5,764 nt of DNA from a virus: IMG/VR virus record IMGVR_UViG_3300029214_000065; one strand, written 5' to 3'. The notes under the pieces are model-generated. The model saw nothing but the letters and a program-made list of their open reading frames with translations. It was not told the DNA's origin and searched no databases. Below, one piece after another: positions 1 to 5,764 of this stretch. Both the position numbers and the translations under genes were made by a program. The stretch's first letter is position 1. The number at the start of each line of letters is the position of its first letter.

Positions 1-94
1 ACTACAATCTATAGAAAACATGCAAGAGCAGCTAAGAGGAATGATAGCTGACAACGACATAAAAGTCGAAACAAAAGAGGAAAAAATACAACAG
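1..94. repeat. Terminal redundancy, copy 1 (identical to 5671-5764). It marks the circular junction of the 5670-bp genome.
   Basis: Exact 94/94 nt identity between 1-94 and 5671-5764, read directly from the sequence. The VP2 reading frame is continuous across the junction. Confidence 0.9.
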
Positions 95-604
95 GCATGG
101 TGGGATATGAGAAACGCTATGGGTACAGCCATGGTTAAAGAAGCAGAAATCGGGCTCACTAAGAGCCAAAAGGAATTAGTTGACAAAGAGGTCAACTATT
201 TTATCTATCGAATTGTAACCGATAGACTAAAAGCAAACGCCGCAGGGAAATCTGCGGACGCCTCAATGCTAGGAGCAGAGGCACAGAAAGAATCTGCCAA
301 AGCACGTTGGCTCGATGCTGAAACAAATCAGCAAAAAGCACGAGTGTTTGCCGACGAAGTAAAAGCAAAAATAGAATATATGGGCGAGAGAATCGACATA
401 GAAAAAGAAAAGATTTTACAAGACTGGATATATAAATCGATTAACGCAGGGATTCAAATCGGAGATTTGATTTCAACTTTTACACCACAAGGTGCCGCAA
501 TAAAGACGGTAAAATCTGTATTCGGTCAAAAAAAACCGAAGCAATATGATACACCAACAGGTGGAAAACCGTGGTGGGAAGCAGACGAGTACAAAGGTCG
601 ATAA
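2..604 (+). CDS. VP2: C-terminal portion of the VP2-like minor capsid / DNA pilot protein (Microviridae H/VP2 family). The gene starts at 5144 and wraps across the circular junction; the ATG at 20 is internal.
   Basis: Frame (codons start at positions congruent to 2 mod 3) is open from position 2 and identical to the ORF that starts at 5144. It ends at TAA 602-604. Composition is Ala/Gln/Lys/Glu-rich and coiled-coil-like, typical of pilot proteins. The provided ORF 20-604 is just the first internal Met. Confidence 0.8.
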   Translation, partial: LQSIENMQEQLRGMIADNDIKVETKEEKIQQAWWDMRNAMGTAMVKEAEIGLTKSQKELVDKEVNYFIYRIVTDRLKANAAGKSADASMLGAEAQKESAKARWLDAETNQQKARVFADEVKAKIEYMGERIDIEKEKILQDWIYKSINAGIQIGDLISTFTPQGAAIKTVKSVFGQKKPKQYDTPTGGKPWWEADEYKGR

Positions 605-620
605 CGTTCCACGTGAAACA

Positions 621-650
621 ATGCGGGCTAACAACCCGCATTATTTTTTT
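621..650 (+). terminator. Rho-independent terminator after VP2 (analogue of phiX174 T_H), immediately upstream of Rep.
   Basis: Perfect 7-bp GC-rich stem ATGCGGG(621-627)/CCCGCAT(635-641) with 7-nt loop CTAACAA, followed by TATTTTTTT (642-650). The T-run is conspicuous on this otherwise T-poor strand. It lies 17 nt after the VP2 stop. Confidence 0.65.
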
Positions 651-675
651 ATAAATCATTATAAATCAAGATATT

Positions 676-1587
676 ATGTGTCTATATACCGAATATATGA
701 TTAATAAAAAGTATCTACCAAACAAAAAAAACGGCGGTAAACCTCCTGTATGCAAGGATATGCGAACTTATTACGTACCGGTAAAGTGCGGAAAATGTTT
801 GGAATGCAAACAGCAAAAGCAAAGAGAATGGATAGTAAGATTATCCGAAGAAATAAGAAATGATAACAACTGTTTATTCGTTACACTGACATTCAACGAA
901 ACAAACTTGAAATCATTTCAATGTTCAGACGAAAATGAAACCGCAACACTAGCAGTAAGACTATTCCTAGAAAGAATCAGAAAAAAAACAGGAAAATCTG
1001 TTAAGCATTGGCTAATAACAGAACTAGGAGAAAAGAACGGCAGAATACATCTACACGGTCTAATCTGGACAAATGCAAGCCTGATTAAGGAAAAATGGCA
1101 ATACGGTAACGTATTCATAGGAACATTCGTAAACGAGCGAACTATATTCTACATAACAAAATACATGCTAAAAGAACAAATAATAAAGCCAAATTTCGAA
1201 GGAAAAATATTGTGTAGTAGCGGTATAGGGAAAAGCTATTTAAATCGAGCAGACGCAAAAAGAAACGCATTTAAAGGGGAAGATACAAACGAAACCTACA
1301 GATTAAAAAACGGACAAAAAATAAACTTACCTACATATTACAGAAACAAACTATATGATGAAGAGCAAAAGGACCAGCTTTGGATTGCAAAACAAGAAAG
1401 AGGATATCGCTATATAATGGGAGAAAAGGTAAGTACAGAAGACGAAACTACATACATGAATCTGTTAAGATTCTATCAAGAAAAAGGGAAAAGAATACAC
1501 AATGACAATCCTGAAAAATGGGACAAAGAAAAGCACCTAAAAAGACTAAAAAAATTGCAAGCATATCGAAAAAAGAACAAGCTATAA
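676..1587 (+). CDS. VP4: Rolling-circle replication initiator protein (Microviridae VP4 / phiX gene A family, HUH endonuclease).
   Basis: 303-aa ORF. The N-terminus MCLY...VPVKCGKCLECK..REW matches the gokushovirus VP4 Cys-cluster N-terminus (VPCGKCxxCR..W). RCR motif I is LFVTLTF (877-894), motif II is RIHLHGLIW (HUH, ~1039-1065) and motif III is FYITKYMLK (two catalytic Tyr, 1147-1173). An alternative start at ATG 697 is possible. Confidence 0.93.
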   Translation: MCLYTEYMINKKYLPNKKNGGKPPVCKDMRTYYVPVKCGKCLECKQQKQREWIVRLSEEIRNDNNCLFVTLTFNETNLKSFQCSDENETATLAVRLFLERIRKKTGKSVKHWLITELGEKNGRIHLHGLIWTNASLIKEKWQYGNVFIGTFVNERTIFYITKYMLKEQIIKPNFEGKILCSSGIGKSYLNRADAKRNAFKGEDTNETYRLKNGQKINLPTYYRNKLYDEEQKDQLWIAKQERGYRYIMGEKVSTEDETTYMNLLRFYQEKGKRIHNDNPEKWDKEKHLKRLKKLQAYRKKNKL

Positions 1588-1640
1588 TTATAATATTATA
1601 TTTTATTTAATTATAAAGAAATATATATGATGATAATAGC

Positions 1641-1760
1641 CTGTTGAAACTGTTGATAAAGTAGTTAATTAACTGAAAATAAGAAAATTAAAATGTTAAT
1701 AAACTGTTGATAAGTTTTTGATAAATAATAAGGAAATAATTTGGAAATTTAAAAACAGAA
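1641..1760 (+). repeat. Iteron-like repeat cluster in the AT-rich intergenic region. It contains AACTGTTGATAA x2 (1648-1659, 1702-1713), the TTGATAA core x4 (1653, 1707, 1718, 1866) and ~40-bp imperfect direct repeat R1 (1718-1756), which is repeated as R2 at 1866-1905.
   Basis: Direct reading. R1 is TTGATAAATAATAAGGAAATAATTTGGAAATTTAAAAA and R2 is TTGATAAATAAAGGAAAATATATTTGGAAAATTAAAAT, about 85% identical with small indels. CTGTTGA also occurs at 1641-1647. Confidence 0.6.
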
Positions 1761-1887
1761 TTTCGTAAAATAAAAAACGAAAAATACAAATTTTAAAGGA
1801 AAAAGTTTTAAACAAGTTATAAACAGGATATCAACCGATTTTAATATAGTTATTAACAAGTTATGTTGATAAATAAAGGAAAATATA

Positions 1888-1920
1888 TTTGGAAAATTAA
1901 AATAAATAACAGTATATTTG
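1888..1920 (+). promoter_or_regulatory. Candidate Bacteroidetes sigma-A-type promoter: -33 TTTG (1888-1891), 21-nt spacer, -7 TATATTTG (1913-1920). A second exact TATATTTG lies at 1884-1891.
   Basis: Exact matches to the Bacteroides consensus -33 TTTG / -7 TAnnTTTG with 19-21 nt spacing (established consensus). TTTG is rare on this T-poor strand. The first ATG downstream is at 1935. No other TAnnTTTG was found elsewhere in the genome. Confidence 0.4.
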
Positions 1921-1934
1921 TAAAAAAACAAAAT

Positions 1935-2120
1935 ATGATAAAAGAGAAATACGAAATCGAAATATACGATATAACAACAAACAGTATATCAGTATATGTA
2001 CAAGAAGCAACATCATTTTATAAGGCATTTTTAGCAGCAAAAGCCATGCAAAGAGTTTACAAAAACAATTGGAATAGAAAAACAGAAATACTAAGAATAG
2101 AAAAAAAATATTCCACGTAA
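1935..2120 (+). CDS. Small hypothetical protein p61 (MIKEKYEIEIYDITTNSISVYVQEATSFYKAFLAAKAMQRVYKNNWNRKTEILRIEKKYST). First ORF downstream of the candidate promoter. The ORF is open from ATG 1863 (85 aa), but that start would lie inside or upstream of the promoter.
   Basis: Open frame 1863-2120 with TAA stop. Codon third positions are A-rich like the recognised genes. The in-frame ATG 1935 lies ~15 nt downstream of the -7 box. No recognisable domain. Confidence 0.35.
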   Translation: MIKEKYEIEIYDITTNSISVYVQEATSFYKAFLAAKAMQRVYKNNWNRKTEILRIEKKYST

Positions 2121-2145
2121 ATAACCAATTAATTAATAAATAAAG

Positions 2146-2301
2146 ATGTTTTACAAATGGATATTAAAAATCGTACACCAACAAAGTGGAGAAATAAGAG
2201 AAATAGAAAAACAAGAATCTCTTACAAAAATTGCATCATGGGAAAAAGAAATCAAAAAATCAGGGTGGGAAATCATAACCATAAAAAAGATATACTTATA
2301 A
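2146..2301 (+). CDS. Alternative overlapping small ORF p51 (MFYKWILKIVHQQSGEIREIEKQESLTKIASWEKEIKKSGWEIITIKKIYL). Mutually overlapping with p58, and at most one of the two is likely real.
   Basis: 51-aa ORF, hand-translated. It has a protein-like mixed composition and A-rich third codon positions with many GAA codons. No homology recognised. Confidence 0.2.
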   Translation: MFYKWILKIVHQQSGEIREIEKQESLTKIASWEKEIKKSGWEIITIKKIYL

Positions 2302-2333
2302 TAAAAACAATATACGGAAAATTTAGATTATGA
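2157..2333 (+). CDS. Small extremely basic protein p58 (MDIKNRTPTKWRNKRNRKTRISYKNCIMGKRNQKIRVGNHNHKKDILIIKTIYGKFRL). Candidate ssDNA-binding/packaging protein (phiX J / gokushovirus VP8-like role).
   Basis: 58-aa ORF translated by hand (below the 60-aa track cut-off). It has 19 Lys+Arg against 2 acidic residues. Its TGA stop (2331-2333) overlaps the ATG of p66 (2330-2332) in an ATGA coupling arrangement. It overlaps an alternative ORF in another frame (2146-2301). Confidence 0.3.
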   Translation: MDIKNRTPTKWRNKRNRKTRISYKNCIMGKRNQKIRVGNHNHKKDILIIKTIYGKFRL

Positions 2334-2530
2334 ATGACAAAACAAAACAATTAATCAAAAATATCATTGTAGCCGTATTATCAGCCATATTAACATGGCT
2401 AGGAGTAAGCTGCACTAACATGTTGTCAATCAGTAAAAACAACAAAGGAAGCAATCAAACAATCGAAAACAAAACAAGCGGAGAAGCAACAGCAGACAGC
2501 ACAAGTATTAATTTATTCAATAAAAAATAA
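2330..2530 (+). CDS. Small membrane-targeted protein p66 with an N-terminal signal/anchor (K-rich n-region, 15-aa hydrophobic core IIVAVLSAILTWLGV, then SC). Candidate single-gene lysis protein or lipoprotein/secreted peptide.
   Basis: ORF 66 aa. The sequence is MNDKTKQLIKN + IIVAVLSAILTWLGVSC + a polar Ser/Asn/Thr-rich tail. GVS|C fits an SPase I (-3,-1 small) site or an imperfect lipobox. It is tightly packed with its neighbours (ATGA overlap upstream, 1-nt gap to p88). Confidence 0.55.
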   Translation: MNDKTKQLIKNIIVAVLSAILTWLGVSCTNMLSISKNNKGSNQTIENKTSGEATADSTSINLFNKK

Positions 2531-2531
2531 A

Positions 2532-2798
2532 ATGGAAATAGAAGAATTATTCGTAGTACGACCTGTATCTGAGGAACAAAAAGAATTCATTATAACTGTA
2601 GGAAAACACCTAGCAACGACAAAAAGATTCAAAACAAAAAAATCAGCAGAAACGTATATCAAATACCCTAAATGGGACACCACATTTGCGCTAGTCGCCG
2701 AAATGCTTGAATCGAAAAACGCAGCGGAAAGTCAAATTAAAGAAAATGCTAAAAAAGTAGTAAATAAAATCATTAACGACACAACAAAAGAATCATGA
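2532..2798 (+). CDS. Hypothetical protein p88, immediately upstream of and translationally coupled to the major capsid gene. Possible scaffold or DNA-binding accessory protein; function unknown.
   Basis: ORF 88 aa (MEIEELFVVRPVSEEQKEFIITVGKHLATTKRFKTKKSAETYIKYPKWDTT...). Its TGA stop overlaps the VP1 ATG (ATGA at 2795-2798). No TM segment and no recognisable motif. Confidence 0.5.
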   Translation: MEIEELFVVRPVSEEQKEFIITVGKHLATTKRFKTKKSAETYIKYPKWDTTFALVAEMLESKNAAESQIKENAKKVVNKIINDTTKES

Positions 2799-4735
2799 GC
2801 ATTACAAAATCAATCGGAAAAAACACTTTGGGCGGCGGAAAAAAAATGAACGTCCAAATGAGAAGTTATGAAAGATCAACACACGACCTATCATACGCGT
2901 GGCGCAGTACAATGGGAATCGGAACACTAGTTCCATTCCTATGTGAAATCGGATTACCAGGGGACACATGGGACATCAATCTGGTAGAAAAAGTACTGAC
3001 AAAACCAACAACAGGACCACTATTCGGCAGTTACAAAATGCAAATGGATATTTTCACCTGCCCAATAAGACTATATAACGCACTACTGCACAACAATGCA
3101 CTTAATGTAGGCTTAGACATGAAACAAGTTAAATTACCTGAATTTAACGTAAGCTGTCCAGCAGCATGTTATCCTGAAAAATCGAATGGCAACCAATGGA
3201 TTCAAGTAAACCCAAGCAGTATTTTCGCATACCTAGGAAGAAGAGGATTTACGGGGAGAAAACAAGGAATCTCATTCAACGCAACACCCGAAATTGCATA
3301 TTACGACATATTTAAGAACTACTATGCAAATAAACAAGAAGAAAACTGGTACATGGTTGACTATGACGGATACTGTACTATACAGGACAACTTAAGTTAT
3401 GATAGCAAAGGAAACGTAACAGATGGGTACTTTATATTCTATCCTAAAACAATAACCCAAACAACACAAGAAACAATAGGACCATTATACACATACACAT
3501 TCGGAGAGAAAGAATGGAATTTCACAACAATAACAGGCTGGTTTAATTTCACAGTCAACCAAGCAAACAACTACGTTAAAGTAACACTTAAAAACGAATA
3601 CAAAGCGACAACAACCGGAGTGGGGTTACCAATCGGTGGAAAATTAGCATCAGTAAAATTAATAATGGCAAAATCGATATTAAAAAGTTGGAAACTTACC
3701 GATATTGATGACATAAGAGAAAAAATCTTAGCCGCAGGAAGTACAGAAATATCATTCAATCAAAACGGAAAAACATATCTGGACTATTTGACAAAATACA
3801 CAGGAACAGCCACAACCGGCGGTAGTACTGCAATGAAAAGCAGTTACCCAATGTTCGGACTAGCAATAAAAACACTACAAAGCGACATCTTTAATAACTG
3901 GATTAATACAGAATGGATAGACGGTGATAACGGAATCAGCGCAATTACGGCAATCAGTACCGAATCAGGGTCATTCACAATCGACCAGCTCAACCTTTCA
4001 AAGAAAGTATATGATATGCTAAACAGAATCGCGCTATCTGGCGGAACTTATAAAGACTGGATAGAAACAGTATACACCAATGACTACACAATACATGCAG
4101 AAACACCAGTATACGAGGGTGGCGCATCATGTGAAATTGTATTTAATGAAGTAGTAGCAACCGGAGGAAATGAAACATTAGGTACATTAGCAGGTAGAGG
4201 TATATCAACAGGGCACAAAAACGGTAAATTACACCTAAAAATCAAAGAACCATGTTACGTTATAGGTATAGTAAGTATAACACCAAGAGTAGACTATTGT
4301 CAAGGAAACGCATGGCACACAGACTTGAAAACAATGGATGACTTGCATAAACCACAGCTAGACGGTATCGGTTTTCAAGACTTAACCTGCGATAAAATGG
4401 CATGGTGGAAAGACTACGACAGCGACGGAAAGAAATACGCAGTAGGGAAACAACCAGCATGGTTAGATTACATGACTAACTTCAATAAAACCTATGGCAA
4501 TTTTGCAATAGAAAATTCAGAATCATTCATGGTATTAAACAGATGGTACTACCCAAAAAACTCGTCAAACAACTGGAATACAGAAGAACTAAACACAACA
4601 ACATATATCAATCCTGAAGATTACAACTACATATTCGCCGACACTTCTTTAGGAAGTCAAAACTTTTGGGTACAAATCGGGGTCGGCATCGAATGTCGAA
4701 GAAAAATGAGTGCAAAACAAATACCAAATTTTTAA
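2795..4735 (+). CDS. VP1: Major capsid protein VP1 (Microviridae F/VP1 family), 646 aa. The size is consistent with alpavirus/gokushovirus-type VP1 carrying a large surface insertion.
   Basis: The N-terminal region RSYERSTHDLSYAWRSTMGIGTLVPFLCEIGLPGDTWDINL matches the conserved Microviridae MCP signature (RSxFDLSH..kTTfdaGxLvPi..eVLPGDTf). It is the longest ORF. Alternative internal start at ATG 2846 (MNVQMR). Confidence 0.93.
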   Translation: MSITKSIGKNTLGGGKKMNVQMRSYERSTHDLSYAWRSTMGIGTLVPFLCEIGLPGDTWDINLVEKVLTKPTTGPLFGSYKMQMDIFTCPIRLYNALLHNNALNVGLDMKQVKLPEFNVSCPAACYPEKSNGNQWIQVNPSSIFAYLGRRGFTGRKQGISFNATPEIAYYDIFKNYYANKQEENWYMVDYDGYCTIQDNLSYDSKGNVTDGYFIFYPKTITQTTQETIGPLYTYTFGEKEWNFTTITGWFNFTVNQANNYVKVTLKNEYKATTTGVGLPIGGKLASVKLIMAKSILKSWKLTDIDDIREKILAAGSTEISFNQNGKTYLDYLTKYTGTATTGGSTAMKSSYPMFGLAIKTLQSDIFNNWINTEWIDGDNGISAITAISTESGSFTIDQLNLSKKVYDMLNRIALSGGTYKDWIETVYTNDYTIHAETPVYEGGASCEIVFNEVVATGGNETLGTLAGRGISTGHKNGKLHLKIKEPCYVIGIVSITPRVDYCQGNAWHTDLKTMDDLHKPQLDGIGFQDLTCDKMAWWKDYDSDGKKYAVGKQPAWLDYMTNFNKTYGNFAIENSESFMVLNRWYYPKNSSNNWNTEELNTTTYINPEDYNYIFADTSLGSQNFWVQIGVGIECRRKMSAKQIPNF

Positions 4736-4738
4736 AGT

Positions 4739-5038
4739 ATGGGAAAAATTTTTAAACCTCAAGTAAAATTCGGGTTTCTAGAAACATATTCAGGAGAAAC
4801 AATTGAAACAAAGGTAGAACGTGTAACAGCTAATAATGAACCAATTACAGACGGGGCAGAAATTGTATACACAGAAAAAAAGAACGGTGTAATGCCTGAA
4901 TATAATGTCAGAACGGACAAGTGGGAAATTGCACAAGGAGCAATGGACAGAGTTCATGCGAACAAAATAGCACAAAGTAAATCATACGCAAATCCTGACA
5001 AAAAGAAAGACGAATCAACCGCACCAACAGCGGAATAA
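4739..5038 (+). CDS. Hypothetical acidic protein p99 between VP1 and VP2. Possible internal scaffolding (VP3-like) or other structural accessory protein; unverified.
   Basis: ORF 99 aa starting 4 nt after the VP1 stop (operon-like packing). It is Glu/Lys-rich with a K/D/E/S tail and A-rich third codon positions. No motif recognised with confidence. Confidence 0.5.
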   Translation: MGKIFKPQVKFGFLETYSGETIETKVERVTANNEPITDGAEIVYTEKKNGVMPEYNVRTDKWEIAQGAMDRVHANKIAQSKSYANPDKKKDESTAPTAE

Positions 5039-5067
5039 ACACTCACAACATATGAGTTAATAAATTA

Positions 5068-5084
5068 ACATGCGGTACGCATGT
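5068..5084 (+). other. Perfect GC-rich hairpin/palindrome ACATGCG-GTA-CGCATGT (7-bp stem, 3-nt loop) in the p99-VP2 spacer. Candidate mRNA-stabilising/terminator-like structure or complementary-strand origin element.
   Basis: Direct reading. The reverse complement of 5068-5074 equals 5078-5084. It lies 30 nt after the p99 stop. Confidence 0.5.
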
Positions 5085-5105
5085 GTTCTAATATATCGAG
5101 AATAC

Positions 5106-5136
5106 AGCGTATCGCTTTTTTATAACCAAAAAAGCG
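5106..5136 (+). other. Second set of alternative hairpins just upstream of the VP2 start: AGCG-TAT-CGCT + T6 (5106-5122, weak terminator-like) or CGCTTTTTT/AAAAAAGCG (5113-5121 / 5128-5136, 9-bp stem, loop ATAACC).
   Basis: Direct reading of inverted repeats. The two structures are mutually exclusive (shared CGCT), which suggests a regulatory switch or attenuator 8-30 nt before the VP2 ATG. Confidence 0.4.
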
Positions 5137-5143
5137 CGAAAAA

Positions 5144-5764
5144 ATGGCATTAGGATTAATAGCAGGTGCAGCACTTAACGGAATGGTAGGTGCTATACAA
5201 GGACAAAACCAGTACAATAGAGAAATCGACAAGATGAACTACCAGTACAAGCTAAACGCAGAAGCCGCTAAGCAAAATCAAGCACTAGCAAAAGACATGT
5301 GGGACTACACTAATTATGAAAATACAGTGAAACACATGAAAAACGCAGGCTTGTCAATAGGACTATTATACGGAACAGGCGGAGGACAAGGGCAAAGCAC
5401 CACAGCAGGAGGCAGACAAGAAGGTGTAGATATGGGAACAACACAAGCAGGTGGAATTTCCCTACAAGGAGCAAGCATACTCGCCGACATTAAGTTAAAA
5501 GAAGCCGAAGCGGAAAAAGCAGAAGCAGAAGCAAAGAAAACAGCAGGAGCAGACACACAGTATACGGAGTCACTAACTTCACTTAACAGCACAATAGAAG
5601 AATTAAACAAAGCAACAACAGCACTAAGAACAGCAGAGGCAGGAAAAGCCCAAGAAGAAACAAAACAGATACTACAATCTATAGAAAACATGCAAGAGCA
5701 GCTAAGAGGAATGATAGCTGACAACGACATAAAAGTCGAAACAAAAGAGGAAAAAATACAACAG
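5144..5764 (+). CDS. VP2: N-terminal portion of the VP2-like minor capsid / DNA pilot protein. It runs off the window end and continues at 2-604 (total ~377 aa on the circular genome).
   Basis: The frame is open from ATG 5144 (an in-frame TAA at 5123-5125 precedes it) to the end of the window, with no stops (hand-translated). The N-terminus MALGLIAGAALNGMVGAIQGQNQ is Gly/Ala hydrophobic. MWDYTNYENTVKHMKNAGLSIGLLYG matches the conserved Microviridae VP2 motif (..MSNTAYQR..DmkaAGLNPilay). It is followed by a Gly/Gln-rich segment and an EAEAEKAEAEAKK coiled-coil-like region. Confidence 0.85.
   Translation, partial: MALGLIAGAALNGMVGAIQGQNQYNREIDKMNYQYKLNAEAAKQNQALAKDMWDYTNYENTVKHMKNAGLSIGLLYGTGGGQGQSTTAGGRQEGVDMGTTQAGGISLQGASILADIKLKEAEAEKAEAEAKKTAGADTQYTESLTSLNSTIEELNKATTALRTAEAGKAQEETKQILQSIENMQEQLRGMIADNDIKVETKEEKIQQ
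5671..5764. repeat. Terminal redundancy, copy 2 (identical to 1-94).
   Basis: Exact direct repeat of window positions 1-94. Typical of a circular genome assembled as a linear contig. Confidence 0.9.

Follow-up and report, generated by a model that had tools for sequence, protein, structure and literature searches.

Genome organization

The window, by which we mean the whole stretch of 5764 bases that was analysed, is a microvirus genome, complete and circular: a unit of 5670 nt with a terminal redundancy of 94 nt, positions 1–94 being duplicated at 5671–5764. All credible genes lie on the plus strand, which is the strand given here and is 44% adenine. An identical VP1 is encoded on contigs of one human gut metagenome, ERR589508.

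The replication initiator Rep (676–1587) matched phrog_942 and PF23343. It is followed by an AT-rich intergenic region of 347 nt (1588–1934), the part from 1588 to 1883 lying upstream of the putative promoter described below, and then by p61 (61 aa; 1935–2120), the first cistron after this Rep-proximal region. The small conserved ORFs p51 (2146–2301), p66 (2330–2530) and p88 (2532–2798), all with tblastn matches in relatives, precede the major capsid protein VP1 (646 aa; 2795–4735), whose start is overlapped by p88 as ATGA and which matched phrog_514 (E = 5e-47) and PF02305. A small protein encoded 3′ of VP1, p99 (4739–5038), is kept in nearly all relatives. The DNA pilot protein VP2 (phrog_8689) is a 376-aa ORF on the circular map, running from 5144 to 5764 and then from 1 to 604.

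Some of the small ORFs warrant comment. Automated gene callers start the p61 ORF at ATG 1863 (85 aa, 1863–2120), which buries both of the promoter boxes described below inside the ORF; ATG 1935 is the more likely start. The ORFs at 2146 and 2157 overlap (2146–2333), and only the p51 frame is kept in relatives. p66 has a hydrophobic N-terminal segment ending in cysteine and is lipoprotein-like. It is 86–92% identical to the copies in L001, L021, L030 and L064, whose VP1 proteins are just 51–58% identical to that of the window, a difference that suggests strong constraint or recent exchange.

At E ≤ 1e-20, VP1 has 6978 relatives. Our comparison set comprised ~70 related loci with VP1 39–90% identical to that of the window, and no homologue of p61 was found among them. 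GenBank phages included no near relative, giving just short patch matches, so that close-range footprinting was not possible. No Rfam family matched the window or any of the seven relatives scanned with it.

A probable composite promoter upstream of the first cistron

The spacing between the −33 and −7 elements of sigma-ABfr promoters is reportedly 19–21 nt. The elements themselves have been described as TTTG and TAnnTTTG (Bayley et al. 2000, as cited in PMC7366714 and PMC6847099), with a revised −7 consensus of TAHHTTTG (PMC6847099). The original prediction was that TAnnTTTG occurs twice ahead of p61, the TTTG of the first copy serving as the −33 element of the second at a spacing of 21 nt. 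TATATTTG is indeed present at 1884–1891 and at 1913–1920 on the plus strand, 43 and 14 nt, respectively, ahead of the ATG at 1935. The TTTG at 1888–1891 forms the 3′ end of the upstream copy and lies exactly 21 nt before the downstream copy, itself an exact match to TAHHTTTG. This TTTG-N21-TATATTTG arrangement is the sole TTTG-N17-23-TAnnTTTG on either strand of the window. The accompanying claim that the genome holds no other TAnnTTTG stood for the coding strand but not for the minus strand, which has three, at 366–373, 2356–2363 and 4809–4816.

A single TAnnTTTG box is not improbable. Two were observed on the plus strand where shuffled sequences gave 1.2 (P(≥2) = 0.35), and the five on both strands compare with 9.8 expected. 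The composite, TTTG-N19-21-TAnnTTTG, is improbable (P = 0.011 in dinucleotide shuffles of the genome and P = 0.005 when the 347-nt intergenic region alone was shuffled), the more so given that it sits immediately ahead of the first ORF. The tetranucleotide TTTG itself occurs 13 times on the plus strand and 88 times on the minus strand. Selection might also show as a depletion of TAnnTTTG from the antisense strand, where the window has three against 8.4 expected (P = 0.025), but ten lineages pooled have 66 against 70, and the idea was dropped as unsupported.

Conservation among related microviruses

Ten lineages with VP1 ~43–58% identical were treated as independent, and the 80 nt ahead of the first ORF beyond the Rep-proximal intergenic region were searched for a box. 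Its absence from close relatives had been named beforehand as refuting the promoter; instead, a TAHHTTTG box was in place in eight of the ten lineages (the window itself, labelled W, and L001, L021, L065, L003, L002, L015 and L005). L003 was counted by hand, since the script missed its box and ATG, which lie across the terminal repeat of the contig. The exact box was absent from the upstream windows of L063 and L067. Per 80-nt window, a box has a probability of 0.014 at the genome-wide rate, giving a binomial P of ~1e-11 with L003 not scored; a hand estimate against the richer intergenic rate gave ~1e-8.

The spacing is kept as well as the position. A −33 TTTG was present in seven of the eight box-bearing lineages, always 19, 20 or 21 nt upstream within a searched range of 17–23 nt. 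The motif could also be recovered de novo: in a prior-free enumeration of 8-nt patterns with six fixed letters across the ten upstream windows, TA..TTTG ranked first, occurring in eight lineages against 0.38 expected. None of the in-place boxes has a guanine at either n position, as TAHHTTTG requires. In the group that shares the long Rep-to-VP1 interval of the window, every member has a TAnnTTTG 14–63 nt before its first ORF, the variants being TATATTTG, TACATTTG, TATCTTTG, TAAATTTG, TAATTTTG and TACCTTTG.

The relative L029, with a VP1 90% identical to that of the window, retains TAAATTTG, here lying 20 nt before a first ORF other than that of the window (its sequence ends 20 nt upstream of this box). 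Together with the lack of a homologue for p61, this suggests that the promoter is kept while the gene behind it is swapped.

A chance match without function in AT-rich DNA would account for an isolated box, more than one being expected on the plus strand, but hardly for the composite or for a position and spacing kept across lineages (P ≤ 1e-8), and we regard this explanation as barely credible. The sigma-ABfr architecture of the original prediction is strongly supported by the conservation of the boxes and of their TTTG partners. The 1884–1920 segment is probably the main promoter, read by the housekeeping sigma-ABfr of a Bacteroidota host. As judged from its sequence and conservation it is very probably functional, and would be a new instance of a known host-specific promoter type rather than a new kind.

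Choice of box, start site and leader

The presence of two complete boxes leaves a choice of −7 element. Both L001 and L064 have a single box; this aligns with the downstream box of the window, and their −33 TTTG aligns with the end of the upstream box. The alignment supports the downstream box as the −7 element and, in agreement with the original prediction, the TTTG of the upstream box as its −33 partner. Boxes in tandem are also seen in L002/L053 and in the L005 group.

Placing the downstream box on the published geometry (T−12 A−11 T−8 T−7 T−6 G−5; PMC6847099) gives a predicted start near A1925, 5 nt after G1920, with a leader of 10 nt. The upstream box could also be a second, weaker −7 box, and may give a minor start predicted near 1896 with a leader of 39 nt. 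Leaders from both candidate starts are unstructured, the 10-nt one folding at −1.5 kcal/mol.

The length of the predicted leader counts against the promoter reading. Leaders of Bacteroides thetaiotaomicron have a mode of 23 nt, with 3.7% under 10 nt (PMC7366714), so a 10-nt leader is short by this standard; it would also exclude the adenines at −11 to −13 from the mRNA. Were the upstream box (1884–1891) the working −7 element, with a start near 1896 and the downstream box secondary or inactive, the 39-nt leader would be typical of Bacteroides, for which the median is 32 nt (PMC7366714), and would retain the adenines at −11 to −15. Furthermore, L002 and L053 have a similar pair of boxes spaced 29 nt apart, of which it is the upstream member that matches exactly. 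However, no TTTG is found 17–23 nt before the upstream box, it is followed by G where the extended consensus TANNTTTGY has Y (PMC8748976), and the single box of L001 and L064 corresponds to the other copy. We consider it unlikely that the upstream box is the working element.

Translation starts and the sigma-70 alternative

Translation starts in Bacteroidota have no Shine–Dalgarno (SD) sequence, are enriched in adenine at −3, −6 and −11 to −15, and have no nearby upstream AUG (PMC6847099, PMC7366714). For the window, none of 10 candidate starts had anti-SD complementarity better than −3.5 kcal/mol; the background of the genome has a median of −1.7 kcal/mol, and 21% of its positions reach −4 or lower. 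This bears out the claim that no gene start has an AGGAGG-like ribosome-binding site. Adenine is found at −3 in all eight of eight starts, at −11 and at −12 in seven of eight each, and at −6 in three of eight, and no ATG is present in the 20 nt before any start. The SD-independent translation of Bacteroidetes type that had been proposed thus fits these SD-less, A-rich starts.

The same features bear on another reading of the segment, in which a sigma-70/sigma-A promoter (−35 TTGGAA, 17–18-nt spacer, −10 TATATT) serves a non-Bacteroidota host and TAnnTTTG is a by-product of AT-rich sequence. Sigma-70 promoters have TTGACA at −35 and TATAAT at −10, separated by 16–18 nt, and a scan for them scored TTGGAA-N17/18-TATATT at 1889/1890–1918 at 9/12, a passable match. 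The window scores in this way because TTTG-N19-21-TAnnTTTG is geometrically equal to TTGnnn-N16-18-TAnnnT. Some relatives also point towards sigma-70: L040, L042 and L043 look non-Bacteroidota and have strong AAGGAGG sites, and the L067/L070 lineage reads, by eye, TTGGTT-N17-AATAAT, one of its contigs abutting a Bacilli gene. Against this, the letters kept across relatives include a T before TTG and a TG after TAnnTT that sigma-70 does not need, while the −35 hexamers match TTGACA at only 3–4/6. Wholly SD-less genes like those of the window would be unusual for phages of Firmicutes or Proteobacteria, and the adenines at −3, −11 and −12 fit Bacteroidota. A sigma-70 promoter is, in our view, quite improbable.

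SD sequences vary among the relatives. A strong AAGGAGG precedes both VP1 and a small gene in L040, L042 and L043, the last of which has one before Rep too. In the promoter-bearing L002, L003 and L053 a strong SD is confined to Rep, except that L002 has one before VP1 also. A change of host, or special control of Rep, may lie behind these two patterns.

Terminator-like hairpins and the transcription unit

The coding strand carries exactly two hairpin-plus-T-run signals, at 620–650 and 5072–5121. A terminator had been claimed at 621–650, and the hairpin there is real: between VP2 and Rep, an 8-bp GC-rich stem with a 7-nt loop is followed directly by T7 (620–650), the hairpin folding at −12.8 kcal/mol (z = −3.5) when taken as 620–642 and at −11.8 kcal/mol when taken as 620–643. 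The second signal, missed by the original prediction, lies between p99 and VP2 and consists of a 17-bp hairpin (5072–5115; −22.5 kcal/mol) followed by T6 (5116–5121). The whole p99–VP2 spacer (5039–5143) folds at −27.6 kcal/mol (z = −5.1).

In ~35 relatives, the 5′ arm and loop of this second hairpin (GGTACGCAYGT...TATATATCAAGT) are found once per genome and at the same place. The stems covary among relatives, and at least five Ts follow in seven lineages. The element at 5072–5121 may be a terminator-like attenuator, a replication or complementary-strand origin, or both; it is the retention of the 5′ arm and loop sequence that suggests a possible further role in replication.

The original prediction envisaged one long mRNA from p61 through VP2, overlooking this conserved hairpin and its T6. 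With the hairpin positioned before VP2, the transcript is probably attenuated stepwise rather than running uniformly from p61 to VP2. The gene order suggests that the capsid block probably ends at the first attenuator, with VP2 behind it and Rep behind the second.

No consensus promoter was found for Rep. The sole candidate, TATTTTTT at 642–649, has a mismatch at G−5 and sits inside the T-run of the terminator. Expression of Rep by read-through is plausible given the lack of a consensus promoter of its own. In the nearest complete relatives (L001, L030 and L021) a hairpin and T7 lie directly after Rep, and L064 has the same hairpin and T7 after its Rep stop codon; the arrangement in the window is therefore not the family norm. 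With two terminators and a single promoter, the window could have a dose ladder in which capsid exceeds pilot protein and pilot protein exceeds Rep.

The likely course of expression can be outlined, in which the sigma factor, the host, the start site and the efficiency of each terminator are all inferred. Once the single-stranded genome had been converted to the double-stranded form, host RNA polymerase would bind the −33 TTTG (1888–1891) and the −7 TATATTTG (1913–1920). Transcription would begin near A1925, to which the upstream TATATTTG may add a minor start near 1896, and would cross p61, p51, p66, p88, VP1 and p99 before meeting the hairpin-plus-U-run signals, the first at 5072–5121 before VP2 and the second at 620–650 before Rep. 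Partial termination at both would give mRNA levels in the order capsid block > VP2 > Rep, much like the nested transcripts of phiX174. Every cistron would be translated without an SD, from A-rich, unstructured starts with adenine at −3.

The probable host

The promoter type, the SD-less starts, the gut origin of the window and the animal-gut relatives together make a Bacteroidota host likely; Bacteroidales, as the order, is inferred from the habitat. Prophage matches to Bacteroidales genomes had been suggested as a check on the host, and none was found in two scans of 185 579 species genomes each, one queried with VP1 and the other with an alignment of 24 VP1 sequences. The sole match, a 1.9-kb contig in a Bathyarchaeum MAG, is best explained as a binning artefact. 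That no host could be linked through a prophage, CRISPR or an isolate counts against the promoter reading; nor was any isolate, prophage or host label found for this clade of gut microviruses.

Several candidate anchors for the host were set aside. Both the B. fragilis phage phiHBP1, the sole isolated microvirus of Bacteroides (VP1 24% identical over 184 aa), and the Parabacteroides phage YZ-2015a (25% identity) are too distant, and KT264754, considered as a host-linked microvirus, proved to be a mink gokushovirus. The 9.2-kb contig L070 consists of a relative of the L067 lineage (1–3008) fused to mfd-sbcD-sbcC genes (3002–9224) of 25% GC, and the nearest named match of its SbcD is from a Bacilli MAG. 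The junction cuts mfd with an overlap of ~7 nt and the phage part closes on itself, so that L070 is probably an assembly or amplification chimera and was not used as host evidence.

Within the VP1 clade, regulatory signals differ between lineages. Most have TTTG-N19-21-TAHHTTTG and SD-less genes. L040, L042 and L043 have a GAnnTTTGCAATGT box that is homologous to the TATATTTGCAATGT of L001 with T−12 changed to G, and at the homologous place the L067/L070 lineage has ATTG...TAATTTTA, a better match to sigma-70. These differences raise the tentative and rather doubtful possibility that the signals turn over with the phylum of the host. If true, the host phyla of thousands of uncultured microviruses could be read from promoter and ribosome-binding-site signatures, and the clade would document jumps between phyla.

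Comparison with known phages and promoters

Transcription in phiX174 starts from the promoters PA, PB and PD, with leaky terminators after J, F, G and H. Like phiX174, the window is a circular microvirus with its genes on one strand, which would be transcribed by host RNA polymerase only, and nested mRNAs with a gradation of protein doses could result from the hairpin-plus-U-run signals that lie between its structural genes. The three promoters of phiX174, by contrast, are of sigma-70 type, its genes are SD-led and gene A has a promoter to itself, whereas the window has one consensus promoter of Bacteroidota type and none for Rep. The gene map suggests that a 5.7-kb phage could set its protein ratios with one promoter and two attenuators.

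Compared with the sigma-ABfr promoters of Bacteroides and Flavobacterium, the segment has the same exact −7 element with no guanine at the n positions, the −33 TTTG and an AT-rich spacer; it likewise precedes an operon of SD-less genes, and its 21-nt spacing is within the reported range. It is unusual in lying on a 5.7-kb ssDNA phage, in its 10-nt predicted leader and in having the −33 element within a second full −7 box. A literature search found no paper linking TAnnTTTG to Microviridae. This type of promoter is textbook for Bacteroidota and the finding is unsurprising in kind, but it has practical value: a conserved host-specific promoter together with SD-less starts gives a testable phylum-level host call for a clade without a cultured member, and the promoter would be a ready part for reporter tests or for rebooting the phage in Bacteroides.

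phiHBP1 (PV598014) is the first isolated microvirus of Bacteroidota (PMC13064476). It too is a gut microvirus and has TAnnTTTG boxes immediately ahead of two genes: TAAATTTG lies 7 nt upstream of the ATG of VP1 and TATGTTTG 4 nt upstream of that of Rep. It differs from the window not only in its distant VP1 but in its T-rich coding strand, its gene order and the lack of a −33/−7 composite at these boxes. Alpavirinae, or ‘Family 5’ microviruses, are found as prophages of Bacteroides and Prevotella (PMC9239249). The window, at most a possible member, resembles them in gut origin, long VP1 (646 aa) and suggested Bacteroidota-type host; the species-genome scans gave no related prophage for it.

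Repeats in the intergenic region

TTGATAA iterons are found four times in the window (at 1653, 1707, 1718 and 1866) and GTTAnnAACA twice (at 1816 and 1849), in the large intergenic region only. These iterons are also clustered at the corresponding position in L001, L064, L030, L021, L063 and L065. TTGATAAATAATAAGG resembles the phiX174 origin core, CAACTTGATATTAATAAC, and on the strength of this likeness is a candidate nick site for Rep.

Such repeats allow the TATATTTG blocks to be read as an origin or iteron array, bound by Rep or host factors and with no role in transcription. The first box follows a TTGATAA iteron, of a type confined to the intergenic region in the window and its closest relatives, and lies inside a 37-nt direct repeat (1718–1754 and 1866–1902; 76% identical). 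However, the other copy of the repeat has no box, the motif matches the known promoter consensus letter for letter, and the iteron-less lineages L003, L005 and L015 still keep a box and its −33 partner before the first ORF. Because lineages without iterons keep the boxes, an origin or iteron role is very unlikely.

In L002, L003, L032 and L053 the post-Rep intergenic region contains a GC-rich block of ~130 nt that is kept between lineages (e.g. L003:5534–5709). This block has no counterpart in the window and no match in Rfam, and one hairpin within it shows two compensatory pairs.

The segment 1718–1790, which begins with the first copy of the 37-nt repeat, is a degenerate duplicate of the promoter block, with the TTTG kept, a spacer of 14 nt and the box GAATTTCG. 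In L063 a GAnnTTCG box, similar to this degenerate copy, is found in place of the consensus promoter.
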